From contig CM097888.1 of assembly GCA_044892525.1 (NCBI GenBank), positions 2,914,001 through 2,978,000 on the forward strand: a DNA stretch of 64,000 nucleotides, read 5' to 3'. Each line of letters starts with the position of its first letter. Within the stretch, counting starts at the first letter, position 1. The stretch is from Schmidtea polychroa (lineage: Eukaryota). Below the pieces are notes generated by a model, which had not been told where the DNA came from, searched no databases, and saw only the letters and a list, made by a program, of their open reading frames with translations. Made by a program: the position numbers and the translations under genes. Positions 42,831-64,000 of the stretch are shown one piece after another.

Positions 42831-43537
42831 GGGGTCAAAACATCCTGTCGGATAAACTCAGAGTATATATAATAAAACTGATCAACAATAAGTATTTATT
42901 GAATGCGATTTTGTCATTGCAATAATAAGTCAGTAGTAATCAATTAAAAGAAGAATGTTTTGTAAATTAGAATTCTAAAGTCTTTCATTTTAAATTAAAT
43001 TATTGTTGGGGTCACACCTCGGCTGACCATTCTACCATGTTGGCGGGTCTAAGGGTTGATTGTCCATCTCGAATAAAAGGTGCCACCGATTTGTCAACCT
43101 GGAGTGAAACCCCACATAACTTTCTTCCAACATAGTGCCCGTGAATCACTTCACGTTGGTACTGCACTATGCAGGCGAGACGCCAGCAAGCAGGTGAGCT
43201 TCTGCCTTAAAACTACTCCTTGCTGAGGCCTCGACTTCCCATTCACGACTGCCGATAGAAGGGCTTACGTCCATTTCCTTACACAACCACCTATCAGGAT
43301 TCGCTGAATGCAAATTGGGAAATTCTCACTAGATCTTGCGGGTCCTCTTCTCAACCCACTTAATTAAAGTCTAATTATTCAGGAACGAAAACGTGTAAGA
43401 CAACAAGATTTATTAATTTCAACGTTATGACACAAGGATTCAGCTGTACACTTTACTAATGTTTGTCGAAAGAAGAGAAAACATCATAATCAACATAGAT
43501 CGGATCCTTGTTCCTCATCCTGACCGCCACTGGGGTT

Positions 43538-44326
43538 TTATTGTTTCTCCCATTCAGTGTCGGCGAATAATTCGTCGAGGTTGAAAAACTCGGAAGCGTT
43601 CTCTTCCCACCTTACGCCAGCGGCTGATATGATTCGCGCTGAGGGTCCCGTTGTTAGGTCGATGGACACGTGAGAGTTGCCACCGTTAGTTGAGTCCTCT
43701 ATTGATGGGATGTTTGGCTTTGCAGTAGCGCGCTCGCGCTGTCTCTTCTTGCGCTCTGCACGAGAGAGTTGTTTGCGCTTGGGTTTGCTTGAAGATGCCA
43801 CTTGCAGAAGGGTGACTGATACAGATGGACTAGCAGTGGGGGGCTTACTGGTACCCGTGATGACAACATCTGGACGCTTGGGGGACCATTCGGTTTCGAC
43901 GCAGTCTCGGCACGGTCTCTTGAACGGTGGAGATGGATTCGAGGAAAGGTTGTGATGAGGCGGAAAGATGTCATCGGCCTCTCGGATGGGAATCTGCACG
44001 ATTTTTCGGGTTGTAGCCGCCTGCACGTAAACCTTATGCAGTGCCTCGGATTGTTCTCTGATTAGACTTCTTTGGGCACGGCTCTCAGATATTAGCGCGT
44101 CCCGGCAATGCTCGCTACGATCGAGCTTCTTTTGGATCTCTTTCATCCGAGCGGGACTAAACCATGTCCCTTCCAGCTCGTCTATCTTCCTCTTGTAACG
44201 TCCAATCTGAGTTTGTAGGTCCTTTATCACCGTATTTTTATCCGCGCACGAGAAGCATGGCCGTAATGCCGATTTAGTGGTTGGTAGCATGCTTGCTATA
44301 AATAATACTAATGAAATGGAGAACAT
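43538..44326 (-). CDS. Unknown protein: CxxC, coiled coil, second CxxC, basic NLS-like tract, acidic/aromatic C-terminus; probable start ATG 44290
   Basis: 262-codon ORF containing PCFSC, PCRDC, KPKRKQLSRAERKKRQR and EFFNLDELFADTEW. The stop overlaps AATAAA, and acceptor TTATTTATAG lies 5 nt before ATG 44290. Confidence 0.65.
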   Translation of the reverse strand: MFSISLVLFIASMLPTTKSALRPCFSCADKNTVIKDLQTQIGRYKRKIDELEGTWFSPARMKEIQKKLDRSEHCRDALISESRAQRSLIREQSEALHKVYVQAATTRKIVQIPIREADDIFPPHHNLSSNPSPPFKRPCRDCVETEWSPKRPDVVITGTSKPPTASPSVSVTLLQVASSSKPKRKQLSRAERKKRQRERATAKPNIPSIEDSTNGGNSHVSIDLTTGPSARIISAAGVRWEENASEFFNLDELFADTEWEKQ

Positions 44327-46374
44327 ACGATTTTAGAATAAATTAGATACGACCCGCGTCCATTCGTGGATACTTGACCGTCGAAAAGAAGGAAAACTTA
44401 TTCTACAATCCGGTTTTACTACGGATCTTAGTTGTTAAAACAGTTTATTTAACCAAATGCCCTCGGTTTGACGCATGTTATGAACTTTGACTATCTATTG
44501 ATCTAACTGTATGCATGAGGGACGTAATAATTGATAGGGTGTAAATATAATATTGGTGAAACAATATAATAATGCTTTAGTAGAGGGACATTATAGTATG
44601 CGACCAAACCTTGCTATATGTTATCTATTTTAATTTATTAAAAACAAATTACTATCGCTCTCAACATATTTTTGATTCGAAATTTGTTATTGGAAGTGCA
44701 CTTTTAATTCGGTAGTGAATGTGATTATCTATGTTGTCTACCATTGGTCTGAAAATATGTGATGAGTTTACATCAGCCATTACTTTAACACCCTCATGGA
44801 AAATCCCATCGGTCATAACATATCCAAATTTACGGATACTGCTGTCGACTGGTTGATTACGTTATCGACCTATTGTGAATGTCACGTGTCGCGACTACTA
44901 TGTATGCTAGTCTGATATTCTGTGCTCTCACCGCATGGATTCGTGTATGGCTACTATCTTATCTCACTCACTTGGTGTATGCCATTTTCACGGTGATTTT
45001 ATCGATCCTGCTGTCGTATGATTTTCTCTGCACAGTGATTTATTTGAGTTATGATTTATGCTACCGCCAGTTCTCATCGCGGAATTTTACCCTTATCAAC
45101 TTGTGTGAATGATCACCATCGTTTGGAAATTTATTGGATCTTTTCAGTGATCGTCGAGGGAATAATTCTACCAAATACTGGAGCATATTACTACTCTCGT
45201 CATTCTACTCGGATTTTCCTATTCAGATGTAATGCCGTCTCGATGAAACCTGTCCTTTTCTCTCAGGTTCAATAATTTGGATATATACAGTGATGACCTG
45301 GCTCTTATTGTAGAAATAAATGTTATTAATTAAATTTGGTGATATTTTACCTGTTTATAATTTTTGAAATAACTAAGTCTATAAAAACTTTCTGATTATA
45401 ATACTAGAGAGGTTTTCGTAGAATCTCGTATTTTATAGTTTCGAGTTAGTTAAAGTTTTTAGAATACTTTCGTAACCTGACATACAATCTGGACAGGTTA
45501 GATGACATTGGGTCTATGATAATGGAATTTCATACGAATTTAGTTCTACTGAGTCCGGCAAATAGACGTTGTCGCAATTAATTTGATAAAACCATGTTTC
45601 CAGATGAAGCGTACTATGAGATGTTGTTATTTTTGACGAAGTTCACTAAATCGTGGTCTGGATCTCTTTTTTCAATAGGGGTAAGACTTACGAAAACGAC
45701 TTGACGAAAGAAGAATGCGACGCCCTCAATCACTGTGCAAATCCTTGAAAATCCCTTCATTCGTATGACTATCTTTGTGAAATCATTGTCTACCGGTTAT
45801 TTTTTATCCATACCCCATTGTGATAATTTAGTCGCATCTTCAGCGATAGGACCCGTGAAGAAGCCTTCACATTTCGGCCCAATCTAGCTGCGCGATTGAA
45901 ATACTCCATGTCCACCGGCTGAGCTCCCGAAGGCACCTCATACCATGACATGGAGTATCTCAACTCCACGTTACTCGTTAAATGAAAATTCATAAAATCT
46001 TTAATTCAAATAAAATACGGACATCTGGATAAAAATATTTTATTGATTCTGAAATACTTAAATAATACAAATTCCATCAATACGTTAAAGTTATTAAAAT
46101 GGAGAATCAAATGAAGAGAGTTAACTAAAATGTTTAATCGTTAATATTTAACATTATTATTAGCTTTGCAAATACTTAAATAAATCTATAAACAAATGAA
46201 ATACCCCTTACTATTGTTAGGCTGAGTCAAAATTCAATGTTGTTCGTTCCAAATAGTTCTAATGGTGGTCCGTTGGATGTCGATTATTGTGATGAATGGT
46301 ATTTCGGTCTCTGAACTGGTTTTGAATAGTCGTGGAGTTTTCTGAATGACGGTTGCTTGGCTAGTAGTGTCGAT

Positions 46375-46453
46375 CCTATGAAATGCTCGGGGTTAACAGT
46401 AAAAACAGTAAACATTCTTTCTTACCTATGAAATGCTCGGGGTTAACAGTAAA
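46375..46453. repeat. 29-bp direct repeat in the putative 3' UTR/LTR
   Basis: CCTATGAAATGCTCGGGGTTAACAGTAAA at 46375-46403 and 46425-46453. Confidence 0.9.
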
Positions 46454-47071
46454 TTTAATGTTTTTGGTAGTTGTATATATATCAAATTCTTATTTGTGCG
46501 GACCAATCAGAGTTGAGTACCGCTTATTTCTATTAATTTAATATAATTTTCTTGTTTTTAGGTTGTTTTTTCCTTATTTTCTTTATTTTTAATATGTTTT
46601 TCTATTTATTTCCTTAATTTCCTTATTATTTCTTGAATTCCTCTTTATTTATTTGTCAACTTGTTCTATTTTAATCTTTTCTTAATTTTATTTTTTTTGT
46701 TTTAATTCTTATGTCTTAATTATTATTTTCCTTATATCTTATTCTATTTTATTTCTGATTTTATTTATTTTATTTTTATTTTTCTTAATGTTCTACTTCC
46801 CTACTTTCTTATTTTTCAACGATTAAATTTTCGACTCAGCCCAACAAATCACTCGGGGACCCATCAAAATTGCGTCCCGCAATTGCATAATTAACTTAAT
46901 TCATTCATTCAAAAAAAATATAACACGAACACGGAAAATTATACAACAATGATAAAAATTTTATTGTAAGATCAAGGTCAAAGCAAGACCAAGCAAGTAT
47001 CACTTAAGGTGATAGTTGGTACATACAATAAAAGTTTCCACATATAATAACACAAATGTTTGAATTAGAGT

Positions 47072-48677: not shown

Positions 48678-49787
48678 TTATACGAAGGTTTCCTCCTGGC
48701 CTACATAACCTTCATCACTATCGACCGCGGGATGTAACTGTATCGCAATAGGGTCGTATGGTAGGTAATATTGGGGGATTTGAGCTCTCAATTCATTAAT
48801 TTCGTCTCTTAGAGCTCGAGTGATGTTCAATTCCTCGTCGAGCAGATAGGTGAGATACCTTGTCTCTTCGTCTTTCGCCTCTATCTGTTTGTCTAGGGCC
48901 TTGATTTTCTCGTCGCCCTTCCATTTTTCAATTTCTATTTCTAAGTTTTTAATATTTTCGGTGTACATTTTCCTTTCGTTTTCTAATTTTCTGTTTTTTC
49001 CCGCTAGGACCATGTTTCTTTGTTCCAGCGATCCTTGTAATCCATTAAGGTCTCTTTTCATCTCTTCTACCTGATTTACTAATTCCACAACCCGTCCCGC
49101 TTGTTGGGTTATCATCTCTTCCATTGCGGCATTCTCGTGCTCTCTTATGTCGCACTTCATTGCCAAATGTCGCTCAAACTCCATAGCCTTTGTTTGCCAG
49201 GTTTGGCTTCGGGCGGCGACCTTTCTCAACCTTTTCAATTCTTCCTTTATTATTAAATTCTCCTCCCATTTACCTTGTTCGCTTTCATATCCGAGTCTCA
49301 TGGGCAATTCTTTCATCTCTTTTTTCATTTCTCTGTTTTGTCTTTTCCATTTTCTCGCTTCTGCCACTAAGTGCATCATTTTCCTGTCTTCTATTTGTTT
49401 TTCCGCTTCGCGCTTGGTGTTCTCATCGGTAAGTCTTTTTCTCGCTTCCTGCACTAGCTGCTTTAAGTAGTGGCTGTGTGCTTCTTGGCGGGTATTTTCT
49501 AGTGACGCCCATTTTGATGCTCTTTTGCATGCTTCTGCTTCCGCTCTTAAGTTGTGTATTAACCATTGGTATTGACTATTCTCATCTTCTCTAGTTTCTT
49601 CGATGTGATTTCGGGTGAGATTAGTTAGTTGGAACATTACTTTGTTCCATTTTTTATTATGTTCTCGGGGAATTTGTGTCTTGTTGACATTGGTTGGGGC
49701 TATCGCAGTTTCGGTTATTTTCTCTTGTGTCATCTCTAAATCATAGACATCGATTAATCTTTTTATTATGAAAAGGAATTTATTCAT
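48678..49787 (-). CDS. Accessory long coiled-coil protein
   Basis: 369-codon heptad-rich ORF; probable ATG 49733. Confidence 0.8.
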   Translation of the reverse strand: MNKFLFIIKRLIDVYDLEMTQEKITETAIAPTNVNKTQIPREHNKKWNKVMFQLTNLTRNHIEETREDENSQYQWLIHNLRAEAEACKRASKWASLENTRQEAHSHYLKQLVQEARKRLTDENTKREAEKQIEDRKMMHLVAEARKWKRQNREMKKEMKELPMRLGYESEQGKWEENLIIKEELKRLRKVAARSQTWQTKAMEFERHLAMKCDIREHENAAMEEMITQQAGRVVELVNQVEEMKRDLNGLQGSLEQRNMVLAGKNRKLENERKMYTENIKNLEIEIEKWKGDEKIKALDKQIEAKDEETRYLTYLLDEELNITRALRDEINELRAQIPQYYLPYDPIAIQLHPAVDSDEGYVGQEETFV

Positions 49788-49925
49788 TATTTACTGTTTC
49801 TTGGGAAATTTTCGCATCATTTTTGGGTTTTCGTATTTAGGGTTTTCATACTATTATTATATAATATTTTATTGGTTATATACACCGATATATACAGATT
49901 ATTATATACAACATTATTCGATTGG

Positions 49926-51314
49926 TTACTCCGTTCTACCCTTCTCCTCTTTCCTCACGGTCATCTTGATATATATGGTATCATTTCTCGCCATATCTTC
50001 TACTCTTTGTTGTGAGATGAACGTAGGTGCTCCTGTTGCTGATCCTTCTTCGTTGAGGGGCCTCTGGTAAGCTATTTGATTCCCCGTTGTTTTGAAGCTT
50101 TGCTCATGTATACTTTGGTTGTTCATCAGAGTAATATCGATTTTTGCCTGGAACGGCCATTCTAATATTTCGTCGTATTCTCCTTTACATAACAGAAAGA
50201 AAATCGAAAAGTGCGTATCCAATCCGGTTCCGTCCCCGTTGGGATATACCTTCATTTTCATTTTGTACCCATTTTTCCAAGAATGGAATGTAGGACTTGT
50301 TATTCTTGTCTCTTCTCCGGTTTTTGCTTTTCGTATTCTTTCTTTTACTCCCGTTATTTTCCATATGTAGGGTGCTGTTGGGGTTATCTCATTTAGATTT
50401 ATTTCCCGTATTTTCTGATGTAGCTCCTTGGCCTGATTATTACTGATTTCTGTTCGGTTTATTTGCATCTTTATGTTTGCTCGGGCTTCTTCGAACGCTT
50501 CCCTTTCTTCTAGTAGTTCTTTGACTAACACTTTCAACGATGTTATCTCTATCTCCATTTGTTTTACTTTCTCTTCGCTTTCTTGTAGCGCAGTCGACCA
50601 CATTTCTGCGTGAGTTGAAGCATTTTCTACTAAATGATGTGGTAACTCACCTCGGTGTAGTAGTTTCTGACAACCCCATCTACCTAGTACACATGTCATT
50701 CTTTTCTTTGCGCATTCCCTTAGATGCTGTGCCACCTTCATTATTTCCCCTTGGTTACATCCGTTTGGGCATTCCCCACTGAACTCTGCACATACTCTCT
50801 CCTCTTGGACATTGTGATGTTTGAGGGTGAGATTTATCCACGTATCTATTTCTCCACAGTGTTCACATCTTTCCAATCTCTCTTCACACTGCCTTTGATG
50901 CTCTTTTTCTTCGCTTGCTCGAATGGTTTTATGGCACCTTTCACACTGGCCAATTCTGTACATACATTCTCCCATATGTTGTACTACCTTCCATATTACT
51001 CCTTTCCATTCGCATGGGGCATTTTTGCATCCCAGGTTGGTGTTTAACATGTCTTTCACTGCGGCTTTATCCTCGTTAGTGTCTTCTAAACTCGATATTA
51101 GTGTCTCTTTACACACCGGGCACCTCTGTGGTCTATTCTTTATTGCTTCACTGATACATTCTTTACATACTCTGCATCCACATTGCGTTTGGTGAGGTTC
51201 CTTTAACAACTTTTCACATATTCCGCACATAACATGTTTGTGTATTCTGATCGTTGTAGATTTTCGGACTTGCTCGACAATCTCTCTGAACTCTTCTCTT
51301 TGTCGTTTATCCAT
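49926..51314 (-). CDS. Full-length intronless TRAF-family protein (RING, TRAF zinc fingers, coiled coil, MATH)
   Basis: RING CGICEKLLKEPHQTQCGCRVCKEC...CPVC; fingers CKNAPCEW..HMGEC, CERC..HQRQC, CEHC, CPNGC..HLREC, C..GC..H; MATH PYIWKI...SPTF...GYKMKMKVYPNGDG...HFSIFF...GEYDEILEWPF. Confidence 0.95.
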   Translation of the reverse strand: MDKRQREEFREIVEQVRKSTTIRIHKHVMCGICEKLLKEPHQTQCGCRVCKECISEAIKNRPQRCPVCKETLISSLEDTNEDKAAVKDMLNTNLGCKNAPCEWKGVIWKVVQHMGECMYRIGQCERCHKTIRASEEKEHQRQCEERLERCEHCGEIDTWINLTLKHHNVQEERVCAEFSGECPNGCNQGEIMKVAQHLRECAKKRMTCVLGRWGCQKLLHRGELPHHLVENASTHAEMWSTALQESEEKVKQMEIEITSLKVLVKELLEEREAFEEARANIKMQINRTEISNNQAKELHQKIREINLNEITPTAPYIWKITGVKERIRKAKTGEETRITSPTFHSWKNGYKMKMKVYPNGDGTGLDTHFSIFFLLCKGEYDEILEWPFQAKIDITLMNNQSIHEQSFKTTGNQIAYQRPLNEEGSATGAPTFISQQRVEDMARNDTIYIKMTVRKEEKGRTE

Positions 51315-51399: not shown

Positions 51400-51783
51400 T
51401 TAGGGTTCGGAAGAGTCGGCTTCGTGCCCGCTCTCCTCTCTATTCATTAGCCATTCCGACCAGTCTTCTATTTCTGTCTGTTCTGCTTCCTCCCTCATTC
51501 GGTCTATTTCAATTTCCTGTCGACGGCTATATTGGGTTATCCTCTCTATCTCTCTTTGCATTTGTTCGATTTTTAACCTCTGGTCTTCAATTATCTTCAA
51601 ATAACTAAATCCTCTGTTCATACTCTCGATCAGGTTTCTGTGCATCGTCAGTCCTTGTTCTTGCAAATTGGACACTAATTGTGCTAATACGGCACATTGT
51701 TGCTTCCATAATTCTTCAGTTACTGTATTGTGGTTCATTTCGTTATTTCCTTGATCCATTCCTAATTTATATACACTTTTCAA
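51400..51783 (-). CDS. Small accessory coiled-coil protein with acidic C-terminus
   Basis: 127-codon ORF; probable ATG 51759. Confidence 0.65.
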   Translation of the reverse strand: MKSVYKLGMDQGNNEMNHNTVTEELWKQQCAVLAQLVSNLQEQGLTMHRNLIESMNRGFSYLKIIEDQRLKIEQMQREIERITQYSRRQEIEIDRMREEAEQTEIEDWSEWLMNREESGHEADSSEP

Positions 51784-51919: not shown

Positions 51920-54900
51920 CTATATACGTGAGTTTGGAGGGCGCTGAACGTTCCAGGCCTCCACCCACTGTCCTTGTTTGATATCACTTGGTCGTTTCAC
52001 TCGATGTTGGAAGTTTCTGATTCGGGTCATTTCTAGTTCTCCGCGATGTCGTTTATCTTTAATTATTTTTATTGTTCCCCCCGTTATGATTAGGAATGCC
52101 CCTGTTATTATTATCCCACTGATCCACATCATCTGCTTCACGCTTATACTCTCTGGTTTTTCCTTGTTGGTTAATGTTGATATCGCTTCTGTACTTTTCT
52201 CGTTTCCTCTTTTGCCATTTCCTTTCATCATTTCCCGTATTCTTGCTATTTCCTCGTTCATACCCTCCTTTGCCATCTTTTGTATTTTTTCCATCTCTTC
52301 CTCCGAAACATAGTTGTCCTGAGCTTCCTCACCAGTTTTCTTGTGCTTTCCTCCTTCGTTCTTTTCGTCGTGGTTTTTTCTTTTCTTTCCTCTTTTCCCC
52401 GGGTATCGTCGGCATTCTCTTTTTGATTCAATCCTCCAGATACAAACCGTGTATTCTTTCGGCGGCTGCTGCTGCGTCACATATTGATGGCATCTCTCAC
52501 CTGGTCCTAATCTTGAAATACAGACTTTGTGCTCTTTTCTAGGTTGGATCTGCGTTATTACTACTTCACCACCTTTTCCTAGGTGTACCTCTTTTCCTTT
52601 GACGTTCGTTATTCTCTTCCCGTCTCGATTTCGGTATGCTTCTTGTATTCTTACTTCTGTTATTGGTTCTGTGTCCTCATTTATCAGTACTAGTTTCTGA
52701 TACGCTCTAGACATGCATCTTCCTAGTATGCACCTTTCCTTTAAGTCCCATTCTTCCTTTAAATCCCACTGCTGCTCTTGTGCTTGCTTTCTCTTTTCTT
52801 GTTTTAGTTCATCCTCTTTGCTATCTTGATTCTCCGCTTCTTTGGTTTCTTTTATCGTTCTCGTCCCTCCCTGAGCTGTTACTAACTCTATCATGGTAAG
52901 CATAATTATCATTAATATCATATTTGTCTCTATTTCTTTGTTAGTGAAAGGTAGGCATACCCTCTGTTTTCCATTATTCGATTTTTCCTCCTCTTTGGTC
53001 TTGGTTCTCGGGCTGTTTCCCTCTCTTTTCGTATCCGAATCCTTGTTTTCTGGTTTACCCTCCTCCGGTTCTCTTTTCTCTTTATCCTCCTTTCGGTCTT
53101 TTCCGTTATTGTCATCGTGTTTATCTCCCTCGCTGTCATTTAAAATGTCGTCCTCGACATTTATATCGTTCAATAATCTGCGATATGCTGTTAGCACTCT
53201 GTTTCTTGCTAATTTTGCTTCGAATTCAAACTCTTTTCTACCCGTTGCAGCATGTCTCTTTCTATTCCATTCTTTAACTAACTCTCTCAATTGCATACGA
53301 CGATGTTTCCCAATTCGTTGTTGCTCGTTCTGATTTTGCGTGAATTTTAGGTCTTCTCTATTTAATACTATTAAAATAATTTTAGGCGTCCCCCCCTTAG
53401 TTAGGGTATTCTTTACCATCGCATTTTCTCCGTTTTCGTAGAATTCGTTTACATTTATCGCATATTTATTATTTGGTGGTACTCTCCAGGTTAATAATAA
53501 TTTCATTGCTTCTAGATTTTTCCGTACTGTATTCCATTGAAACTGAGATGTGTTTTTGCACATATTTTCAACTTCTTCTTCTGTCGCATTTTTGCAAATA
53601 AATCTGATCATTTCTAAGTTTGGCTGTATGGTTGCCCAGTCCAAGGTGGAATTTCCTTCATTGGACCTTTCGTCTAGTTTCGATCCTGATTGATGTAGGA
53701 TGTGGAGTGTTTTTGGGTGTATTTTCGTTATAGCTGCATACATCATGGCGGTTTCACCTTGTTCATTTTTCGTGTTGGTTTCCTCGCCCATCTCCCCAAG
53801 GATTCTCATGATCGTTATTGTTCTATTCTCTTTTGCAGCTAGTATTGCTTGTTGTAGGGGTGTTCGGGAATCCTTCGTTACCATCGTAAATGCTCGAGGC
53901 AAGAAGGTTTTGATTTTCCCGATATCTAAACCCGTGGTTTGATCTCTTGCGTATGTGTGTACGGCTTTTATTATTTTGGACAATATTATTTCGTCTGGCA
54001 GCTCTAGCATTTCCTCAAAGAACACTTCTTTTGCTTTGCGTATTATTGCCTCTTGATCTATACTCATTGATTTGGTTTCGATGACGTTGTTTGTGACCGT
54101 TCGGTTCGTTGTTGACTTTGATTCCCTGGATTTCTCATACCTTATTTTCGTTTTCTTTCCGTTTGGATTATTGATTCGTTCCTCTGCTGTAAGTATTTGG
54201 ATAATATCCATGTAATTCTCGCGGATGTTATTCATCGTGTCCATCATATATAACACACTTACTGTTTCCCAATATTTATGTCGTACTTGGTTAGTAAATT
54301 GGAATAGTGATTTTTCGAATGTGTCGATTCGCTTTTTTTTTAACTGTTCGTCTTTGTGATTTGTGAATTTTATCCCTCGTTCTAGTAATTGATTCGGGAT
54401 TTCGAATAAATGATGTCCTTTCATAGCTTCTCTCATCAGCGTGTTCTCTCCTCTCGTGAACGCTTCGTTTACGTTGATCATATAATCGTTTCGAATTGGA
54501 TTTCTCCATGTAATTAATATTCCGGTAATTGTCGTCAGTTTTTCTTTGATCGCTGTTAGCAATCCATCATACATGTTTCCGACTTCCCGATTGTCCTCAT
54601 ATGATAGTAGTTCCATCAATGACGTGAACGCCTCGGTGCTTCTCCCTCTGATAGCATGATGTAGAGCGTTTTTCCGCTCGTGGTCTTGTGTAGTTATTTT
54701 CGATCCGGTATCGAGTAATGCAGTTATAATGTCTTTTGTTTTGCCTCTGTTTGCGGCTATCATTAATGGTGTGTAACCTTGGTTGTTTGTTTGTTCTGTT
54801 GATCGCTTGCAGTCGTGAAATGCTTCTATTGTTTCTAGTATTTGCTCGTTGTTACCTACTTTCATGAGTTTGTGTAATGGTGTGTCTCCGTAATGATCTG

Positions 54901-57900
54901 TTATTGTAAATAATATTGGCCATTGGCTTTTGACTACTCGCAATAATGGGTGTGTCCTTTCTCTATTTGCATAGTTCTCGATCATCGTCAATAATCCTCC
55001 TAATATTTCGAAATCTAATCGATCTTTCGCCCATCCAGGTATTTTAATTTTTACCTCTTTTACAATCTTTTCCGCTTCTGATGGTTGGATACCTAATCGT
55101 CCAGTGATCGGTTCTGCGAGTTGTTGCATCATGTTCATTCGGTAGGTTTGCGAACGTGTGGTTAATGTACGGCCTTCTGGTTGACTAGTGGCTGTTTTTG
55201 GAATTGATTTGCATCGTGCCACGTTTACGTATATTGGTCTGGTAAAGGGGTTATTTACCAATTTCACTCTTACATTAGTTTCGCCTACGAATAAGATCTC
55301 ATATGGTCCTTTTCCGTTGCGTTGTAACTTTTTTGTGGTTCCTGGAATTAATTCCGGGGTTTCTATCATTACCCAATCACCTGTTTGGAACGTATGTTGC
55401 TTCACGTTTTTCTTTCGATCGTGTAAATCTTTATAACTTTCCTGGTAGAACTTGATATTTAATCCCGCAGTTTCCCAAATTTCTTGCATTCTTTCCTTGA
55501 ATTTCGTAACATAATCATCGATCTCCATATACTGCGATATCGGTGGTTGGTATTCCAGGTCCATTGGCATATTACATTCTCTTCCGTACATTAATTTGAA
55601 TGGGCTCATTTTCGTTGATGCGTGAATCGACATTCTGTACGCCATAAGACATAGGTTTATATATTCGTCCCAATCTCGTTGGTGACGGTCAACGTAGTTT
55701 GATAACATTTGTATAAGTGTTCCATTAAATCTTTCCGTCATCCCATTGGTTTGAGGGTGGTATGGAGATGTTCTTAGTTTTGCTATTTTGAAGTAATTTG
55801 TTACTTCGCTCATTATCTCACTCATAAAATTTGTTCCCTGATCGGTTAAGATTTGTTTTGGTGTTCCATATCGGCAACATATCTCTTCTACCAAAATTTT
55901 TGCGATTGTTTTAGCTTTTTGGTCTGGCATCGCGAATGCTTCTGGGAATTTCGTAAGAAAGTCTGTGATCACCAGAATGTAAACGTTTCCTTTATCTGAC
56001 TCTGGTAGTGGACCAACTACGTCCATGGATATCATTGTCATTGGTTCTATTGGTACTGGCATTGGCGTTAAAGGTGCTTTCCATTTCGATCCCGTATTCT
56101 TCCTGGTTGCACAAGTTAGACAATTTTTTACCCATTCGGTTACATCTTCCGTTAACGTAGGCCAAAAATATTTCTGTTTCATTCTTGCTAACGTCTTTTT
56201 CGATGACATATGTCCTCCCAATCTCCCATCGTGATATTGCGTTAGTAACTCTTTTCGTCGGTTTTCCGGTATACACATTAATCGTTTTTCCCCATCCATT
56301 ATCAGCAACCAATCTTTCTCTATAATATATCGGTGTCGGTGTTTATCCATATGTTCTTTTAATTTTTGGTCTTTCGCATATACATCTGTCTGTCCGGTTT
56401 TTATATAATCGATAATTTGTTTTAATTCCGCGTCCTCTTGTTGGTCCTTTCGCAATTGACAGAAATCCAAATCTTCCGCTACTATTAAGCATATGCGTTG
56501 CATTTCTGAATCCACCAAATCTGGGAAAATAAATCTTGACATACAATCGGCGTTGGCATTTGCTCTTCCCGCTTTAAATTTTATAAATGGGGAGTATTCT
56601 TGCAATTGCATGGCCCATCTCATCAGTCTACTGGACGCTTCTTTATGTTGCCCTAACCACACTAATGGTTGATGGTCTGTGGTTATGCATATCTCATGTC
56701 CCCATAGTAAATATCGGAAGTGTTTGATAGCTTGTATTATAGCCAATGCTTCTCGTTCTGTTACCGAATAGTTCTTTTCGTGCTTTTTGAATGTTCGACT
56801 GTAATACCCGATTACTCTCTCTTTTCCCTCATCGTCCAATTGTCCCAGAATCGCGCCTGCCGCGTACCCGCTTGCATCCGTTGCCAATAGAAATGGCTTC
56901 TTAAAATCTGGGTGTACGAGGATAGGTGCTTCGATTAGTTTGTCTCTCAGCGTTTCAAACGCCTCTTGTTGTTCCTTCCCCCATAAGAACGAAATGTCCT
57001 TCTTTACTAATTCCTGGATTGGTTTTGCAATTCCTGCATAATTTTTGATAAATTTGCGATAGTATCCGCATAATCCTAGAAATTCCTGAACTTGGGTGAC
57101 AGTTTTCGGTGCTGGACATGTTTTTATTTTCTCAATGTTTCTTGGATCTGGCTCCTTTCCTTTAGCTGACACTATGTGTCCTAAAAACGTGACTTTTTCC
57201 TTTGCCCAATCGCATTTTGATGGTTTGAGTTTGAGTTTCCACTGTCTTAATCTAATAAATACGTTTCGGATATCTTCTAGATGTTGTTCAAATGTCGCTG
57301 AATAGATTAGTAAATCATCAATATATACCATACATTGTTTGATTCCATGGGTGACAAAGTTCATACACCGTTGAAATGATGCTGGTGCGTTAGTCAGTCC
57401 AAATGGCATTTTCCTGAATTGATATAGATCTCGTCCCAACGTGAAAGCGGTTTTCTCTTTGTCCTCATCTTTGACTTTAATCTGCCAGTATCCACTTTTT
57501 AGATCTAAAGAAGTAAAATATGCTGCCCCTTGCAACATCAATAACATCTCATTGATGTCCGGCAATGGATAGGTATCTCTCTTGGTCACTGCGTTTAACT
57601 TCCGATAATCGATACAGAATCGTTGGGTGCCATCTTTCTTTTTCACCATGACCACTGGGAATTGCCAGGGTGAGCAACTTGGTTCGATTACTTTTGCGTC
57701 TAGCATCTTTTGTACTTCTGTTTCGGCTATTTCTTTCTGCATTTCTGCTAGCTTGTATGGTCTCAATGCAATTGGGGTTTCGTCTATGAGTGGTATTGCA
57801 TGTAAGGTAACATCACATGTACCCAAGTCTAAATCTGAGATGGCGAATATATCTTTATATTCTACCAACAATCGGTGCAATTTTTTCTTTTCGTCATTCG

Positions 57901-60900
57901 TCAACAACATACTATCTATTGTCCATAATTCATCATCTTTGATCATCTCGTTGGTCACTTTCGGTAATTCTATGTCCATCATTGGGGTCAATCTTCCCAA
58001 TTTTTCGTTCTCATAAATGATTTTGTCTTCCTCTTCGAAATTCGTGATGTTGAGCGGTATCACTCCTTCTTGGTTTATTGTGATTATTTCTCTTGCGAGT
58101 GGTAATTCTCGTCGCTTTTCAAATGACTTGCTTGGTTCAAAGATAACTTCTCCTTCCATACCCGTATCCACTTTTATCTGACAAATCATCTGTGATTTTG
58201 CTGGTACTATTATTTTTTCTGGACATCTGATGACTGAATTCATTTTGCATATTCTACCGGTTTTGTCTTTTAAACACATGGTTGTTAAGTCAATTACGAC
58301 TTCTTTTAACAATTCTGGCATCAAATCCGTTCCGATTATGCATGGTACGCTAAGTTTTGGTATTACTGCCAAATACGTTTCAATTTCGTTGTCCTGGTAT
58401 CTCAATGTAGTCCACCATCTTCCGACCACGTCCACTGTTTCTTTACTACATGCTATGATGTGAATTGTTGTTGATTCGATATCCTTCCAGTGTTTACTGG
58501 GGATTTGATTAATCGCTATCGCTGATACATTAGCTCCGGTGTCTATCATAGCATTGGTTTCTTTACCATTGATTTGAATCATAACTGTTACTGCTGGACC
58601 TCCAGGTAAACTCATCGCTGCTATTGTTCTTACGTCATCTGCTTGATCTACACTTTTGGTACGTCGTGTTGGCATATAATGCATACCGGGTTGACTCGGT
58701 AATTGCGGATACATATTTTGTGTCATGGTCAAAGCTGTTTGTGGTCCCACGATATCCGGTGGTATATAGCTTCCATTGGCGATCCAGGTGTTTGTCTTTT
58801 CCTTTTCCCAATATGGTGCCGTTTCCATTGGTTTTTCGTTTGGGTTTCTGTTTGGATAAAGACATTTATCGTTCCCGTTATCATCGTCGTCACTATCGCT
58901 GTTAGATGATTGGCTTCTAAATCGGTCCAAGAATTTTGGCTTATTCTTTTTCAATTGTCGTCTTGTTGCTTCATCGTACATTACTTTCCGGAATCGTCTG
59001 CCTACTTCCTCGTCGGTTCCTTTAATCTTTGTTAATATTTTAATCAATCGCTTTATCCGATGAATGTCTTTTGAGTGGCCATGTAATACCATGGTCTTAG
59101 CTAAAAATGGTAAGAAGCCTACTATCATTTTCCAATTAACTTTCTTTTCCCGCTTGTATATATCGAAACAAGCTAACATTTGTGTTAGTATTACTCTGAC
59201 TATCTGAATTATGAGTATGATCCCTAATATCCCGGCCATCATTTGTCCAAAAACTAAGAATCTTCCCCACATTGCTTTCATCATGTTTGACGTAGCTTGT
59301 TGAAAATGGTCTGGCGATAATAGCAGCTCGTAATTCGGGCCTGATTGATAGTTTGTGCCCCCAGTTATTGTTACCATATTAGACAAAATGGATTCTCGTC
59401 TGGCTGGGAAGAGTACGTTGAGTCGTGCTGTTTCTAGATCTTCTGGGGAATACATACCACCGTTTGACACGTCTATAGGTTTGAAATCCAGCTCTGTGGC
59501 GAGTTCTATTAATCCAAATTTTTTGGGCTCCTCGGATATGGTTTTTCCCGGTAACATCATCCATTTCCCATCGGGCCTTTCATATAAAGGTCCGTATGCA
59601 TTAGAACAGTTAAAGAGATTTGGGTAGAAACCCACTGGATTCATAATTCTAGTGACTGGTTGGACGAATCGATTTTGTCCTTTATAACGGATTTCTAATT
59701 CATTTGCACATCTCTTTTCGGGTAGTATGGATTTTTCTGGCATTCGTGCATACGTCTTGGTACACTGGTATGTGTACATCACTTCTCCTACCATTCTACC
59801 AAAGTGTCCATCTGGTAATGGGAGTGATGGCATCGTGTTATCTGGGTGCGTTATCGCAATAGCTAGCTTTGTTTTCAATATTTCTTTATTCAATGAACAA
59901 TCGTTTTGTATTAGATCGTAATATACTTTTTGCAAGGTCGTTTGTCCGCGATGAAATAGAAAATCCATTTTATTATTTGCATATAAGTATAGTTTTACGT
60001 CCTCCGTTGCTATCTTTCCCACTGCTCTATCGATTATTTGTCTCGACATATAGATACCTGCGTAATTGGTTTTATATACTATACTGTCACATTTGGTGGT
60101 TTCTTTCTCTTTGATAAATCTCATACCTAGATCTGGATCGTCTGTGATTAATGCTGTTGGTGTCTTCTGCGTTGAAAGTCTCTTTTCTCTGGGAGATGGT
60201 GGCATTGGTTTTCCATTTCGCATTCTCACTCTGTCGTTTCCATCCTCGTCGTTCTCGTTCTCATATATTTCTCCTTTTACTTCATTGAACAAAGCACTTT
60301 TTAACAGTTGGAGTCGGCATTTTTGGGTATTAGCTTCATAGATTATAGTTGATACTCCTGTCCTGCATACGTTTTCTGTAGCTCTACACGTTGGGTTGGT
60401 CTTCATTTGGTAATTATTTGCGTCAAATTGCGCTTCGTATTCTTTTAATTCGACCGTGTAAGACTCGATCACTACAACTCCCGATATTACCTCGCCTCGG
60501 ATCGTATACGTACCTCCGTTACATGACCCATCTGATGATTTTACTTTTCCGGATACGTAAACACTTTCGGTTTTAATCATTCCAGTTTGTCCGTGAATTG
60601 TCACTCCGTTATGCATTTTTAGCGCTCCGGTTCTAAATAGCTCTTTACAATCCTCTCGTTGTATTGATACGATTTCTTTATCCAGACCGGGTAGTATAAG
60701 AGTCGAATACGAATATTGTCCACAGTAATATGCGAGTACCTTTTTTGATACTACGCATTCCCTTGCTTGCGTTCTGATGAAATCTGATTCTTGATATACA
60801 TGGTAAGTAACTTTTGTTCTCACGATGTCCAATTTGTTGGGTGAGGCTTGTCTGCATTCTTCTATGTCTCTCAATGAGTATTTATCTCTCATTATCATGT

Positions 60901-63900
60901 TATCACAATCGTAGATGGTGAAACCTGTTGCTCCACTTGTGCACAACATCCATATCATCATAGTCATCATTAACGAATTTATTGATGCTTTTCTGCTTGC
61001 GGGATCTTTCATCGGTAGTTCCCATTCTAGTTCATTTAACAGTTTTTTCAATCTAACTTGCATCGACCTTTCTTGCTCATTTTTCCGTGGCGCTTGTATC
61101 AGTCTTTTCCATCCTCCTGCACGAATAATGTGTGGTTCAATAGTATTCTCTATGATTGAAACGGTCATTTCTACATGATTTGCAAACTGTTTATTTGGTA
61201 TTTTCCTCGCAGCTAGTCCCATCAAATTATACATCAAATAAGTGATTACCACTAGGTGATGCTCGTCATCATTTGCATTTGTCGTGAGCTGCTCAATCAC
61301 TCTCTTTGTTTCGTCCCAATCCGTTTTGGTGGTTTTCGTTTTCTCTTTGATTAACTTTGGGATTATCCCCGAAATGGTGTGCCATAATTGTCTAGCTTCC
61401 GTACTGGCTACTTTCCGTTGCCACAGACGTCTAAGTTGTGGGTTTGTTATTATTAACATATCTTTTAACAATTCTCGTATCCATTTTTCTCCTCTTTCGA
61501 TCGTTGGTTGGGCTTCCTTTAGATCCCATACTATTTTATCCAATTTTTCTAATCGAACTTGCCCTTGTTCTTGCTTTAATTGTTCTTTGGTTTTGAACTC
61601 AGACTTTTCTCCTTGTTTCTTGGGTCTTCCTTTTGCCCGTTTTTCCATCATCGTTCCTGCTTCTCTGGTATTTTCGTAATTCGGATTTCTTTCGTTATCC
61701 GTTCTGGGTAATGAGCTATCGTTATTTCTTAGCCACTCATTCCATTCGTCTATTATTTTGTCGGTTTGACTTTCTGGTGTTACTTTCGTTGGTTCTCTTT
61801 GCTTCTGGAATTGTTCATCCGTTTCGGTTTCCGTAGTATTGTCGATGATTTCTTCGATGTTCAGTTTCGTTGGTTGTTGATAACTCGTTGATGGCTGGTT
61901 ATTAGTCCACATTTCGGCTCCTGTCGGCCATCTCACTAATAGCGGTGATCTTTCTCCTGGTTCATCGTCACTATCTTCCAGGATTATCTCTTCAACTTCT
62001 TCAGTTTCATTAGATTTACTTGGTGCTTTGTTCGGACTTGGAGTACTCAAACTGCCTTTTGTTGGTTTAATAATTTTACTTTTCCTTTTTAACGGTTTTC
62101 CCAACGTTTCTGCCATTGTTAATACATTTGTCTCTTCCAATCTCATGGGGGTTATCCCGACGTCTGCATTATCGTCTAGTGATTTTCCGAACAGTTGCAG
62201 ATGGAATGGAGTTTCATATGCTAATTTCTTTTTTAATTCTCTAATTTTTGTTGTTGGATGCACCTCTAGTTCCTCGATGCTCTTGTCTGGATACTTGATT
62301 CGGATGTGATACCTCTCCTGGGTGTCTTGTGCCCATTCCTGATTTCTCCATTTTCGAATAATTTGTTCTAGCTGTTCTGGATACCATTCATTATATTGCC
62401 GGTATTCCTCTATTGCCTTTGCCATTCCTCTCAGATTGTGGATGTCCTCTGATGTCTTTAAGATGATGTTAGCCAACGCTACTACTTGGCGTCTTTGATT
62501 TTTCGCTCCCATTGCTAAGATATCGCCTAATTGTTTATATCTTTCTTTCTCTTCTCGTTCTCTTGCTTCCGTCGCTTCCTCGCCGTCCATATCAGCATAT
62601 TCACGTTCCTTTTTCCTCATTGCATGAATATGTCTCGCTTCATTTTCGCTTTCTGATGTGACATCCGTCTCGCCTTCGTCATCTGATGTCTGTTCCCTTG
62701 CTTCCTCTTCATATTTTGGAGGTTCCTCTTCTTCTTCCTCCGATTCACTTTCTGTCTCACCAATGTCTGTTTCCACGAAGGTTCCTTTCCGGATTTCCCA
62801 TTCCTTACTTTCTGCATTCCACACTCTTTCCCATGGGGTTCGTCTGCAGGATCTGGTGCTTAATTTCGTGATTTTTCCTTGTAGTTCTTTTTCTTTTAAC
62901 CATTGTTGGTGGATTTTAATTATTTCCGTAGATTTTTGATATAACGTTTTCATCCGGTCTCGTATTTCTTTTTGATAGGTTACATCTCTTGTTCGAAATT
63001 CATCCATTGGTACTATCCTGATTATCTGGTGATTGTCCCACATACCCATTTCGCTTAACGAGGTGTCGTCCTCCGCTCGTAATATTATCTTATCGTACAT
63101 CATGACTACATCATCCACCATACCATCACTACTTTCGCTACGTACCTTTTCCGTTATCTCTTGGTTTATTTTTGATACCAAGTCATCTACTGTACTCTGA
63201 TTGCTCATTTTTATTCGTCGTTTTTCTTCGTTCGGTAACCATATGGTTATTTCCAACCTCTGTGGCTGGGTTTCTTTTAACCTTCCATATTTGTGGATCA
63301 AATTTATGGTTCTCCAATCACTCATTCGGAGCATTTCTGTATCTCGCAACCGGCTCATTAGTTCGTACATGGCTGGGGCTCGTCTGGTGATGAGTAAATC
63401 CCAGTTGTCTTCTACTTGTTCTTGAATTTGTTTGATCAGCTTATCCAGGTTTCGTCTCAGAGTACATTGTTTTATTTGTTCTAATTTCAATTTGATATTA
63501 AAATCATATTCTGCCTTGGCATCTTTAGCCCAATCGTAAAGGTTGGCTGGTTGTTTTTCTTTATGCAACTTCAGTATTTGCGTTTCCCCTGGCCATATTA
63601 GTGCATCTACTAAGTGCATATCTGGTTTGATCGGTTCTCCTTGGTATTGATACAGATATTCTTTCTTTCTCGAACTTCCCAAATGCTCTCGTATCCAATC
63701 GAAAAGTTCGTCGGTGACTGTATTTTTTATCCACATTCTTTCAAGTCCTCTACTCGTTCCGATTTTTATTACATACCGCGTGGTATCGGCCTGCTTCATT
63801 TTTTCCATATAATTTTTTATAATTGATTTTTCCTCGTTTGGTATTAAATCTTTCTCGTTTCTTTCCAATTTCATCACTTTTTGCACGAATCGCCTGAATG

Positions 63901-64000
63901 GTATTACGTCAATGAACTCTTGGTTCCTCACTACTACTGGGAGTATTTCCGCTACTTGTTTTATCGCTTCCTCCTTCCCTTTTCTCAACTTTATTTCGAT
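51920..64000 (-). CDS. Giant retroelement polyprotein (>4,020 aa, 5'-truncated): UBLx3, Bcl-2-like, signal, Env (chuvirus/gB-type), TM, PR, RT, RH, IN, ANK, membrane protein
   Basis: One uninterrupted frame. The listed 'start' at 63988 is TTG and the frame stays open to 64000. Confidence 0.95.
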   Translation of the reverse strand: MEIKLRKGKEEAIKQVAEILPVVVRNQEFIDVIPFRRFVQKVMKLERNEKDLIPNEEKSIIKNYMEKMKQADTTRYVIKIGTSRGLERMWIKNTVTDELFDWIREHLGSSRKKEYLYQYQGEPIKPDMHLVDALIWPGETQILKLHKEKQPANLYDWAKDAKAEYDFNIKLKLEQIKQCTLRRNLDKLIKQIQEQVEDNWDLLITRRAPAMYELMSRLRDTEMLRMSDWRTINLIHKYGRLKETQPQRLEITIWLPNEEKRRIKMSNQSTVDDLVSKINQEITEKVRSESSDGMVDDVVMMYDKIILRAEDDTSLSEMGMWDNHQIIRIVPMDEFRTRDVTYQKEIRDRMKTLYQKSTEIIKIHQQWLKEKELQGKITKLSTRSCRRTPWERVWNAESKEWEIRKGTFVETDIGETESESEEEEEEPPKYEEEAREQTSDDEGETDVTSESENEARHIHAMRKKEREYADMDGEEATEAREREEKERYKQLGDILAMGAKNQRRQVVALANIILKTSEDIHNLRGMAKAIEEYRQYNEWYPEQLEQIIRKWRNQEWAQDTQERYHIRIKYPDKSIEELEVHPTTKIRELKKKLAYETPFHLQLFGKSLDDNADVGITPMRLEETNVLTMAETLGKPLKRKSKIIKPTKGSLSTPSPNKAPSKSNETEEVEEIILEDSDDEPGERSPLLVRWPTGAEMWTNNQPSTSYQQPTKLNIEEIIDNTTETETDEQFQKQREPTKVTPESQTDKIIDEWNEWLRNNDSSLPRTDNERNPNYENTREAGTMMEKRAKGRPKKQGEKSEFKTKEQLKQEQGQVRLEKLDKIVWDLKEAQPTIERGEKWIRELLKDMLIITNPQLRRLWQRKVASTEARQLWHTISGIIPKLIKEKTKTTKTDWDETKRVIEQLTTNANDDEHHLVVITYLMYNLMGLAARKIPNKQFANHVEMTVSIIENTIEPHIIRAGGWKRLIQAPRKNEQERSMQVRLKKLLNELEWELPMKDPASRKASINSLMMTMMIWMLCTSGATGFTIYDCDNMIMRDKYSLRDIEECRQASPNKLDIVRTKVTYHVYQESDFIRTQARECVVSKKVLAYYCGQYSYSTLILPGLDKEIVSIQREDCKELFRTGALKMHNGVTIHGQTGMIKTESVYVSGKVKSSDGSCNGGTYTIRGEVISGVVVIESYTVELKEYEAQFDANNYQMKTNPTCRATENVCRTGVSTIIYEANTQKCRLQLLKSALFNEVKGEIYENENDEDGNDRVRMRNGKPMPPSPREKRLSTQKTPTALITDDPDLGMRFIKEKETTKCDSIVYKTNYAGIYMSRQIIDRAVGKIATEDVKLYLYANNKMDFLFHRGQTTLQKVYYDLIQNDCSLNKEILKTKLAIAITHPDNTMPSLPLPDGHFGRMVGEVMYTYQCTKTYARMPEKSILPEKRCANELEIRYKGQNRFVQPVTRIMNPVGFYPNLFNCSNAYGPLYERPDGKWMMLPGKTISEEPKKFGLIELATELDFKPIDVSNGGMYSPEDLETARLNVLFPARRESILSNMVTITGGTNYQSGPNYELLLSPDHFQQATSNMMKAMWGRFLVFGQMMAGILGIILIIQIVRVILTQMLACFDIYKREKKVNWKMIVGFLPFLAKTMVLHGHSKDIHRIKRLIKILTKIKGTDEEVGRRFRKVMYDEATRRQLKKNKPKFLDRFRSQSSNSDSDDDDNGNDKCLYPNRNPNEKPMETAPYWEKEKTNTWIANGSYIPPDIVGPQTALTMTQNMYPQLPSQPGMHYMPTRRTKSVDQADDVRTIAAMSLPGGPAVTVMIQINGKETNAMIDTGANVSAIAINQIPSKHWKDIESTTIHIIACSKETVDVVGRWWTTLRYQDNEIETYLAVIPKLSVPCIIGTDLMPELLKEVVIDLTTMCLKDKTGRICKMNSVIRCPEKIIVPAKSQMICQIKVDTGMEGEVIFEPSKSFEKRRELPLAREIITINQEGVIPLNITNFEEEDKIIYENEKLGRLTPMMDIELPKVTNEMIKDDELWTIDSMLLTNDEKKKLHRLLVEYKDIFAISDLDLGTCDVTLHAIPLIDETPIALRPYKLAEMQKEIAETEVQKMLDAKVIEPSCSPWQFPVVMVKKKDGTQRFCIDYRKLNAVTKRDTYPLPDINEMLLMLQGAAYFTSLDLKSGYWQIKVKDEDKEKTAFTLGRDLYQFRKMPFGLTNAPASFQRCMNFVTHGIKQCMVYIDDLLIYSATFEQHLEDIRNVFIRLRQWKLKLKPSKCDWAKEKVTFLGHIVSAKGKEPDPRNIEKIKTCPAPKTVTQVQEFLGLCGYYRKFIKNYAGIAKPIQELVKKDISFLWGKEQQEAFETLRDKLIEAPILVHPDFKKPFLLATDASGYAAGAILGQLDDEGKERVIGYYSRTFKKHEKNYSVTEREALAIIQAIKHFRYLLWGHEICITTDHQPLVWLGQHKEASSRLMRWAMQLQEYSPFIKFKAGRANANADCMSRFIFPDLVDSEMQRICLIVAEDLDFCQLRKDQQEDAELKQIIDYIKTGQTDVYAKDQKLKEHMDKHRHRYIIEKDWLLIMDGEKRLMCIPENRRKELLTQYHDGRLGGHMSSKKTLARMKQKYFWPTLTEDVTEWVKNCLTCATRKNTGSKWKAPLTPMPVPIEPMTMISMDVVGPLPESDKGNVYILVITDFLTKFPEAFAMPDQKAKTIAKILVEEICCRYGTPKQILTDQGTNFMSEIMSEVTNYFKIAKLRTSPYHPQTNGMTERFNGTLIQMLSNYVDRHQRDWDEYINLCLMAYRMSIHASTKMSPFKLMYGRECNMPMDLEYQPPISQYMEIDDYVTKFKERMQEIWETAGLNIKFYQESYKDLHDRKKNVKQHTFQTGDWVMIETPELIPGTTKKLQRNGKGPYEILFVGETNVRVKLVNNPFTRPIYVNVARCKSIPKTATSQPEGRTLTTRSQTYRMNMMQQLAEPITGRLGIQPSEAEKIVKEVKIKIPGWAKDRLDFEILGGLLTMIENYANRERTHPLLRVVKSQWPILFTITDHYGDTPLHKLMKVGNNEQILETIEAFHDCKRSTEQTNNQGYTPLMIAANRGKTKDIITALLDTGSKITTQDHERKNALHHAIRGRSTEAFTSLMELLSYEDNREVGNMYDGLLTAIKEKLTTITGILITWRNPIRNDYMINVNEAFTRGENTLMREAMKGHHLFEIPNQLLERGIKFTNHKDEQLKKKRIDTFEKSLFQFTNQVRHKYWETVSVLYMMDTMNNIRENYMDIIQILTAEERINNPNGKKTKIRYEKSRESKSTTNRTVTNNVIETKSMSIDQEAIIRKAKEVFFEEMLELPDEIILSKIIKAVHTYARDQTTGLDIGKIKTFLPRAFTMVTKDSRTPLQQAILAAKENRTITIMRILGEMGEETNTKNEQGETAMMYAAITKIHPKTLHILHQSGSKLDERSNEGNSTLDWATIQPNLEMIRFICKNATEEEVENMCKNTSQFQWNTVRKNLEAMKLLLTWRVPPNNKYAINVNEFYENGENAMVKNTLTKGGTPKIILIVLNREDLKFTQNQNEQQRIGKHRRMQLRELVKEWNRKRHAATGRKEFEFEAKLARNRVLTAYRRLLNDINVEDDILNDSEGDKHDDNNGKDRKEDKEKREPEEGKPENKDSDTKREGNSPRTKTKEEEKSNNGKQRVCLPFTNKEIETNMILMIIMLTMIELVTAQGGTRTIKETKEAENQDSKEDELKQEKRKQAQEQQWDLKEEWDLKERCILGRCMSRAYQKLVLINEDTEPITEVRIQEAYRNRDGKRITNVKGKEVHLGKGGEVVITQIQPRKEHKVCISRLGPGERCHQYVTQQQPPKEYTVCIWRIESKRECRRYPGKRGKKRKNHDEKNEGGKHKKTGEEAQDNYVSEEEMEKIQKMAKEGMNEEIARIREMMKGNGKRGNEKSTEAISTLTNKEKPESISVKQMMWISGIIITGAFLIITGGTIKIIKDKRHRGELEMTRIRNFQHRVKRPSDIKQGQWVEAWNVQRPPNSRI
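52065..52925 (-). other. C-terminal membrane module of the polyprotein (internal signal-like segment, Cys-containing ectodomain, TM)
   Basis: NMILMIIMLTMIELVTAQG (~52870-52925); six Cys in CILGRC...KVC...RCH...VCIW...REC; MMWISGIIITGAFLIITGGTI TM (~52070-52132). Confidence 0.6.
53370..54905 (-). other. Two ankyrin-repeat modules after the integrase
   Basis: YGDTPLH, QGYTPLMIAA, RKNALHHA; then SRTPLQQA, QGETAMMYAA, EGNSTLDWA. Confidence 0.85.
55210..56290 (-). other. Integrase domain
   Basis: HDGRLGGH...CLTC zinc finger; D (56021-56023, SMDVVG), D (55841-55843, TDQG), E (55733-55735, TERF), giving DD35E; GPYEI motif. Confidence 0.97.
56535..57900 (-). other. Reverse transcriptase and RNase H domains
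   Basis: KKDGTQRFCIDYRKLN, YPLP, LDLKSGYWQI, MPFGLTNAP, YIDD (57314-57325), FLGH; RH TDAS (D 56876-56878), EREALA, TDH, NADCMSR. Confidence 0.98.
58315..58590 (-). other. Retropepsin aspartic protease
   Basis: AMIDTGANVS (DTG 58535-58543) and CIIGTDLM. Confidence 0.95.
59165..60975 (-). other. Envelope glycoprotein, chuvirus G / herpes gB-type class III fusogen-like
   Basis: Signal SLMMTMMIWMLCTSGATG followed by FTIYDC. The ~550-aa ectodomain has 14 Cys in the pattern seen in chuviral-type G (YDC, EC, C..YCG, C, GSCxG, C, C...). Furin site REKR at 60179-60190; TM FLVFGQMMAGILGIILIIQIV. Confidence 0.75.
61085..61560 (-). other. Bcl-2-like helical domain
   Basis: IENTIEPHIIRAGGWKRLI resembles BH2 (cf. 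Bcl-xL LEPWIQENGGWDTF). A hydrophobic alpha5-like segment HLVVITYLMYNL sits at BH1 spacing; NWGR is not conserved. Confidence 0.55.
62110..63790 (-). other. Three ubiquitin-like (beta-grasp) domains
   Basis: About 63560-63790 (YVIKI...YQYQGEPIKPDMHL), 63005-63260 (LEITIWLPNEEKRRIKMSNQSTVDDL...TSLSEMGM) and 62110-62315 (YHIRIKYPDKSIEELEVHPTTKIRELKKKL...LFGKSLDD) follow the UBL hydrophobic pattern. Confidence 0.65.

Follow-up and report, generated by a model that had tools for sequence, protein, structure and literature searches.

The window, a stretch of 64,000 nucleotides from Schmidtea polychroa (contig CM097888.1, positions 2,914,001 to 2,978,000 of the forward strand), holds part of a 29.8-kb gypsy LTR element whose features lie on the minus strand (Table 1). 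The two LTRs, of 3,843 bp each, are 99.95% identical and the element is flanked by a 4-bp target duplication, TTAT. When the genome was searched with this region, 150 of 918 candidates were scored and all were 94-100% identical. The element is a gypsy, young and of high copy number, in which env lies between gag and pol. Its single gag-env-pol frame has 4,732 codons in total and runs past the window edge, with Gag followed by a predicted Bcl-2 fold, a hydrophobic segment, a fusion ectodomain, a transmembrane segment, Pol and a second pair of signal and transmembrane segments; about 1,420 residues of the polyprotein lie N-terminal to the Bcl-2 domain. An 18-base stretch that begins seven bases past the 5' LTR (L021:5901-5928, minus strand) looks like a putative tRNA-Pro primer-binding site. 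Besides the TRAF-like ORF, further accessory ORFs of 119-370 amino acids without a clear Pfam family are present on the minus strand (47072-49790, 51400-51759 and 43538-44332), the last of which, as a part of the LTR, is also present in the partner LTR.

Matched by published description and layout, the element is a Burro-type gypsy. The Burro elements of planarians carry a BCL2-like motif, with Env homology between BCL2 and the protease (PMC6431247, which refers to Grohme et al. 2018 and Jurka 2007 on Burro). Like the giant gypsy-like LTR retrotransposons Burro and GYPSM1, the window element is of about 30 kb, with long LTRs and one ORF of 4,600-5,100 amino acids, and it has in common with them a Gag with CCHC knuckles, a ubiquitin-like region, the BCL2-like motif, ankyrin repeats and MATH/TRAF cargo (PMC6431247). 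Its length, its 3,843-bp LTRs and its high copy number are those of the Burro type, as is the single giant ORF arranged as gag, BCL2-like, env, pol and ankyrin. In the window element, however, TRAF is encoded by an ORF of its own downstream of the polyprotein, whereas it is inside ORF1 in Burro1 and upstream in the Dugesia element, and in Pfam there was no BIR or dUTPase match in the window element, unlike the Burro elements (PMC6431247). GAG-ENV-POL errantiviruses of the gB type are described from Platyhelminthes, Nematoda and Bryozoa in the accessible text of PMC13524379; in these too Env lies between gag and pol, and the gB-type ectodomain is flanked by a signal peptide and a transmembrane segment, or by two transmembrane segments. 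The available main text of that paper makes no mention of BCL, Smed, planarian or FN3.

Table 1. Features of the element in the window (all coordinates are positions in the 64,000-nucleotide stretch).
Feature	Position	Strand	Remarks
Single polyprotein frame	51920..64000	-	a further 706 codons outside the window hold Gag and CCHC knuckles (L021, Pfam)
Ubiquitin-like match (weak), upstream of the Bcl-2 domain	62201..62305	-	E 0.03-0.1, under cut-off
Bcl-2-fold domain, predicted helical bundle, aa 789-935 (from ATG 63874)	61070..61510	-	
Central hydrophobic helix (alpha5, BH1 region)	61208..61267	-	DDEH/DEHH at the NWGR position
GGW of the BH2 motif	61109..61117	-	
Predicted linker helix between BH2 and signal segment	61031..61081	-	not alignable across families
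Internal signal-peptide-like segment of Env, aa 967-984	60923..60976	-	cleavage predicted after ATG, before FTIYDC (small-residue pattern)
Env ectodomain, gB/chuvirus-type fusion glycoprotein (PF24664, E 5e-70), 14 Cys	59252..60922	-	Pfam
Env transmembrane segment	59186..59242	-	
Aspartic protease	58310..58585	-	Pfam
Reverse transcriptase and RNase H	56594..57646	-	Pfam
Integrase	55754..56272	-	Pfam
Ankyrin-repeat region	53600..54850	-	Pfam
Second signal-peptide-like segment	52871..52921	-	
Second predicted ectodomain and transmembrane segment	52061..52870	-	without Pfam family of note
Accessory ORF, TRAF-like: RING, zinc-finger-like region, coiled coil, MATH	49926..51314	-	Pfam; ORF separate from polyprotein
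3' LTR, 3,843 bp	43004..46846	-	partner 5' LTR at L021:5929-9771

Sequence and predicted fold of the domain ahead of Env

In the minus-strand sequence IEPHIIRAGGWKRLI the GGW tripeptide is at 61117-61109 and DEHH at 61267-61256. The initial annotation had placed the GGW correctly but numbered it as residues 958-960; it occupies residues 920-922 if the count starts at the ATG at 63874 and 962-964 if it starts at the window edge. A hydrophobic helix had been described 52 residues ahead of the tryptophan, and the aspartate of DEHH is indeed found at that distance, with the helix coming next. The BH2 consensus WIxxxGGW appears as HIIRAGGW, the first tryptophan being replaced by histidine. The canonical NWGR signature of BH1 is lost, as had been claimed, though its replacement may be read as DDEH or as DEHH, since two alignments disagree by one residue.

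Taken alone, the window sequence matches the Pfam Bcl-2 model at an E-value of 0.04-0.08, under the curated cut-off, and single-sequence searches with the domain against PDB sequences, in two word-index protein searches and against the Atlas returned no match. In an alignment of ten rows from four element families, at 21-27% identity, all ten match Pfam Bcl-2 at E<=0.1 (best 3.3e-7), and GGW, on whose conservation in homologues the earlier proposal had been made to depend, is invariant throughout. A sister-family copy, L045, clears the Pfam cut-off at 33.3 bits. A profile built from 21 element-derived rows, with no cellular Bcl-2 included, matched 103 PDB sequences at E<=0.01; the 60 of these that are listed are all Bcl-2 or Bcl-xL, and the best match, to Bcl-xL, has an E-value of 1.4e-8, which shows homology to Bcl-2 proteins over BH1-BH2. 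A ribosomal L17 match (E 0.03) was dismissed as it was present in one of the ten aligned rows only.

For structure prediction with AlphaFold an alignment was used from which P0004, P0005, P0006, P0022, P0048 and all cellular-type Bcl-2 rows had been left out; an alternative alignment, with long proteins ragged at the N-terminus, was not used for folding. The model has a pLDDT of 66 overall and 73-86 on the core helices, with a pTM of 0.60, and shows the trait of the Bcl-2 superfamily, a helical bundle round a central hydrophobic alpha5. A model from the single sequence had a pLDDT of 48 and was too poor to use. The Foldseek comparison that had been suggested as a check gave Bcl-2 proteins as the top rows in both libraries, with weak E-values (0.017 and 0.039). 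In a structural search against 48,161 chains the first 31 of the 50 listed rows were Bcl-2-fold chains, the best with a Z of 12.8 and an rmsd of 2.7 over 133 residues as against a Z of 7.1 for the best unrelated chain, values that are read with the caveat that with this tool a Z below about 13 may be reached by helical bundles in general. The model lies nearer to the BH3-binding cellular, herpes and ASFV proteins (Z 11-12.8) than to the pox proteins N1L, A52 and A46 (Z 6.8-7.7). From the model and the profile matches it is very probable that the domain is a divergent Bcl-2 fold, in agreement with the initial annotation.

The predicted linker helix that follows (61031-61081) is 92-100% identical across eight diverged copies of the window's family. 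Its leucines occur at a BH3-like spacing, yet a large residue is found where glycine is expected. Relatives without Bcl-2 also show helical-looking stretches ahead of the signal segment.

Relatives, the BH1 region and selection

Searching the genome with Bcl-2 and fusion-protein models gave families B, C and D, three sisters of the window's family with identities of 21-27%, all of which show GGW, linker, hydrophobic segment and the Env start motif YDC in that order. With a profile of rows from the four families 55 representatives were obtained among 1.8 billion proteins. Ten have a Bcl-2 profile match together with the segment and YDC, and in seven, which lack a Bcl-2 match, segment and YDC follow at least 130 open residues; four are element-like with the Bcl-2 part only and four look like cellular Bcl-2. 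The other 30, being fragments or having an upstream part too short to judge, were omitted from the counts. The public entry P0023, a protein of a gag-env-pol element, carries the label of a hypothetical protein from a bacterial metagenome bin; it is likely to stem from animal DNA in that bin.

Bcl-2 is the last domain ahead of the segment in all 14 lineages where both are visible. These lineages probably share one insertion, so that the adjacency would not represent 14 independent events. In a tree of Env, three Bcl-2-less rows form a well-supported group that is sister to a Bcl-2-bearing row, and the starred branches force at least two changes in Bcl-2 presence. Rows with and without Bcl-2 are interleaved on this tree, which is mostly unresolved (4/12 branches starred) and in which the clustering is no better than in shuffles (130/500); the changes may be gains or losses of Bcl-2.

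Sixteen lineages show the BH1 region, and among these the tryptophan of NWGR is kept in none and the glycine in one. A basic residue stands at the position of the arginine in 13 of the 16, but is absent from the window's family. The glycine and arginine matter for BH3 binding, and divergent viral proteins such as ORFV125 bind without the full motif, according to the accessible part of PMC9027176.

In all eight diverged copies of the window's family the domain is 92-97% identical, with DEHH and GGW unchanged, while synonymous sites are far apart or saturated. Over BH1-BH2 the dN/dS is 0.02-0.05 in the four of these eight copies where dS could be estimated; it is 0.09-0.17 between two subfamilies of a sister family and about 0.4 for a closer pair in family C. 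The Bcl-2 domain is under purifying selection. Since the spacer upstream is equally constrained in the window's family (dN/dS 0.01-0.14), this selection marks a maintained protein and not a particular Bcl-2 activity.

Other Bcl-2-like sequences were also seen. Two dispersed multi-copy families of small stand-alone genes (L039-L044 and L046-L053) have a WxxV/I-type BH1 and a C-terminal hydrophobic tail, and one of them contains a short in-frame insert with a stop, which is intron-like. Another mobile element may be the carrier of these families. Within about 0.9 Mb of contig C4 lie seven near-identical copies of an exon that is Bcl-xL-like and has NWGR (L024-L030).

The hydrophobic segment and predicted membrane topology

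The Bcl-2 domain had been described as fused directly ahead of the Env signal, within 61085-61560. While it is the last domain before the segment, the segment itself (60976-60923) is outside that interval and starts 44 residues downstream of the GGW, a distance that varies from 20 to 56 residues among the relatives and is about 20 in family C. By its pattern the segment has the anatomy of a signal peptide, with a basic n-region, a short apolar core (11-17 residues across lineages), a polar end and small residues at -3/-1. A small residue is found four places ahead of YDC in 12 of the 14 lineages with Bcl-2 and in all seven without, and the Pfam viral fusion glycoprotein model begins matching within the segment (model positions 5-6 in P0005 and P0015).

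The idea that this segment forms the C-terminal anchor of the Bcl-2 protein holds to the extent that it is signal-like and that cleavage would leave it on the upstream side. The same segment, however, stands in all seven Env relatives without Bcl-2, and for that reason it is taken as Env's own signal, anchoring whatever precedes it. As it is unchanged where Bcl-2 is missing, its double use belongs to the gag-env-pol layout as such and applies to the Gag precursor as a whole. The proposed mimicry of a cellular tail anchor is less certain. The segment would be C-terminal after cleavage, but its 19-residue mean hydrophobicity of 1.27 is the lowest of the four families, compared with 1.83-2.44 for three cellular-type tails, and the domain is itself preceded by the long N-terminal part of the polyprotein. 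In the window's family two basic residues are present before the core and none after it, so that the arrangement of Bcl-xL-type mitochondrial tail anchors, with at least two basic residues on each side of the transmembrane segment, is not seen. For its targeting to mitochondria, Bcl-xL needs basic residues flanking the transmembrane segment (PMC2172731, as far as the text is available), and their absence behind the Env segment argues for the ER rather than mitochondria. Compared with the Bcl-2 proteins at Z 11-12.8, the window domain shares the fold, the GGW of BH2 and a hydrophobic segment downstream, but it has lost NWGR, is 8-15% identical and lies inside a polyprotein, and its segment is signal-peptide-like, 44 residues off and without basic residues behind.

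Three hydrophobic segments come after the first: the Env transmembrane segment, a second signal-like segment past the integrase and a final transmembrane segment. Those relatives whose sequences are of sufficient length (families B and C, P0015 and P0023) have the same three. From this pattern we infer a topology in which Gag-Bcl-2 would be cytosolic, Env lumenal, Pol cytosolic and the second ectodomain lumenal, and with this topology the segment has to remain with the upstream product when the signal is cleaved. On this basis it is likely that one segment serves two proteins, at the moment of synthesis. N-glycosylation sequons were not enriched in the ectodomain (one seen, 4.3 expected), and neither support nor contradict the topology. 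A comparable double use occurs in flavivirus anchor C and hepacivirus core/E1, where one hydrophobic segment is both the capsid-side C-terminal anchor and the signal for the next glycoprotein; these, however, are unrelated RNA viruses with no Bcl-2 domain, and the anchor is later removed by viral protease or signal peptide peptidase (PMC7601889, in its accessible part).

The second signal-like segment with its ectodomain and transmembrane segment (52061-52921, minus strand; L061:9167-9890; L072:1-750; P0015 and P0023) occurs with or without Bcl-2, and the ectodomain gave no match in Pfam or the Atlas. These ectodomains have an LxPxTxY-like stretch in common, of a kind known in FN3 domains. A derivative in a sister family (L063:3343-3350, L067:6865-6872) carries a 6.2-kb internal deletion at an 8-bp microhomology; signal segment, Env and Pol are lost, and Bcl-2 is joined in frame to the last transmembrane segment and about 750 further residues; the junction was seen in 3 of 26 matches.

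Possible roles of the domain

The reading that we prefer, with roughly even confidence, is of an ER-tethered Gag-Bcl-2 precursor on which the Bcl-2 domain would act as a pro-survival modulator, its groove being non-canonical because NWGR is lost. Env's internal signal peptide would likely hold this precursor on the cytosolic face of the ER. The segment would insert co-translationally, signal peptidase would cut behind it and it would stay on the upstream product, like anchor C in flaviviruses. With less assurance, the tether may serve both Env translocation and the positioning of Gag, with Bcl-2 riding along, and signal peptide peptidase or the protease of the element might later remove the segment. 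The putative role of the domain would be to protect expressing cells from death or ER stress, and the TRAF-like and ankyrin cargo of the same element is counted in favour of such a host modulator. The complex predicted for the domain and a BH3-like stretch from a Bcl-2-family gene of the host (L024), whose product may not be pro-apoptotic, had a score of 0.01, which is counted neither for nor against binding. It is doubtful whether the env signal peptide could be a permanent tail anchor for a captured Bcl-2, with each Env made planting a death suppressor with an NWGR-independent groove on the host ER; the polyprotein would then be a flavivirus-like precursor with four membrane segments, giving two surface proteins and two cytosolic products.

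We also think it unlikely that the domain is freed as a protein of its own that needs the Env segment as a lasting tail anchor and acts like cellular Bcl-2 against Bax/Bak. Its place as the final domain before the segment in 14/14 lineages would fit, as would the approximately 20 residues from GGW to the core in family C, which resemble cellular-type tails, the internal deletion that in three places puts Bcl-2 in frame with the second transmembrane segment, and the action of Bcl-2 on several membranes (PMC2172731, available text). Such an anchor is harder to reconcile with a segment that is unchanged in the seven relatives without Bcl-2, with a GGW-segment distance that is so variable, and with the low hydrophobicity and missing basic residues past the core in the window's family. 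On the Env tree, moreover, the Bcl-2-less group is sister to a Bcl-2-bearing row, with at least two changes. Release would require an upstream cut by a protease located on the other cleavage product, and the anchors of Flaviviridae get cut off, as described in the part of PMC7601889 that is accessible.

Poxvirus Bcl-2-fold proteins A46, A52 and N1 block innate or stress signalling through protein contacts, and the domain might act in this way, having ceased to bind BH3. The loss of NWGR, most complete in the window's family, would suit this role, as would the TRAF-like ORF, the ankyrin repeats and the weak ubiquitin-like matches of the same element. Against it, the model is nearer to BH3-binding proteins than to A46, A52 and N1L, a basic residue is kept at the arginine position in most lineages and BH2 is well preserved, and we consider it rather improbable. 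Less probable still, and to our mind a slight chance, is a structural role, with the domain as a matrix-like spacer by which Gag is coupled to the membrane or to Env in assembly and which has no part in cell death. The domain does lie between the nucleocapsid and the membrane anchor under a constraint akin to that of flanking structural regions, but the seven relatives that have the same Env and signal segment without it indicate that assembly can manage without, and the conserved BH2 suits a Bcl-2-type fold over a new role. A chance resemblance, in which a helical spacer happens to contain a GGW tripeptide, would explain the weak or empty single-sequence searches and the poor single-sequence model but is contradicted by the conservation of GGW, by the profile and fold results and by L045, which passes the Pfam cut-off, and is extremely improbable.

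It is mainly from large DNA viruses that viral Bcl-2 proteins are known (PMC11209288, accessible part). The Bcl-2 domain and its placement before Env are already published for Burro, and the finding therefore confirms more than it discovers. The Burro section of PMC6431247 calls the effect of the BCL2-like motif on host apoptosis worthy of experimental confirmation, and is silent on signal peptides, membrane topology, a second membrane protein and any test of the motif. A literature search of openly accessible main texts found no functional test of the BCL2 motif or of an anchor role. The additions made here are support from structure, evidence of selection, the finding that NWGR is lost across lineages, and a membrane topology that can be put to the test. 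That a high-copy retroelement keeps a Bcl-2 domain under selection suggests manipulation of host-cell survival by the element, an idea raised in PMC6431247.
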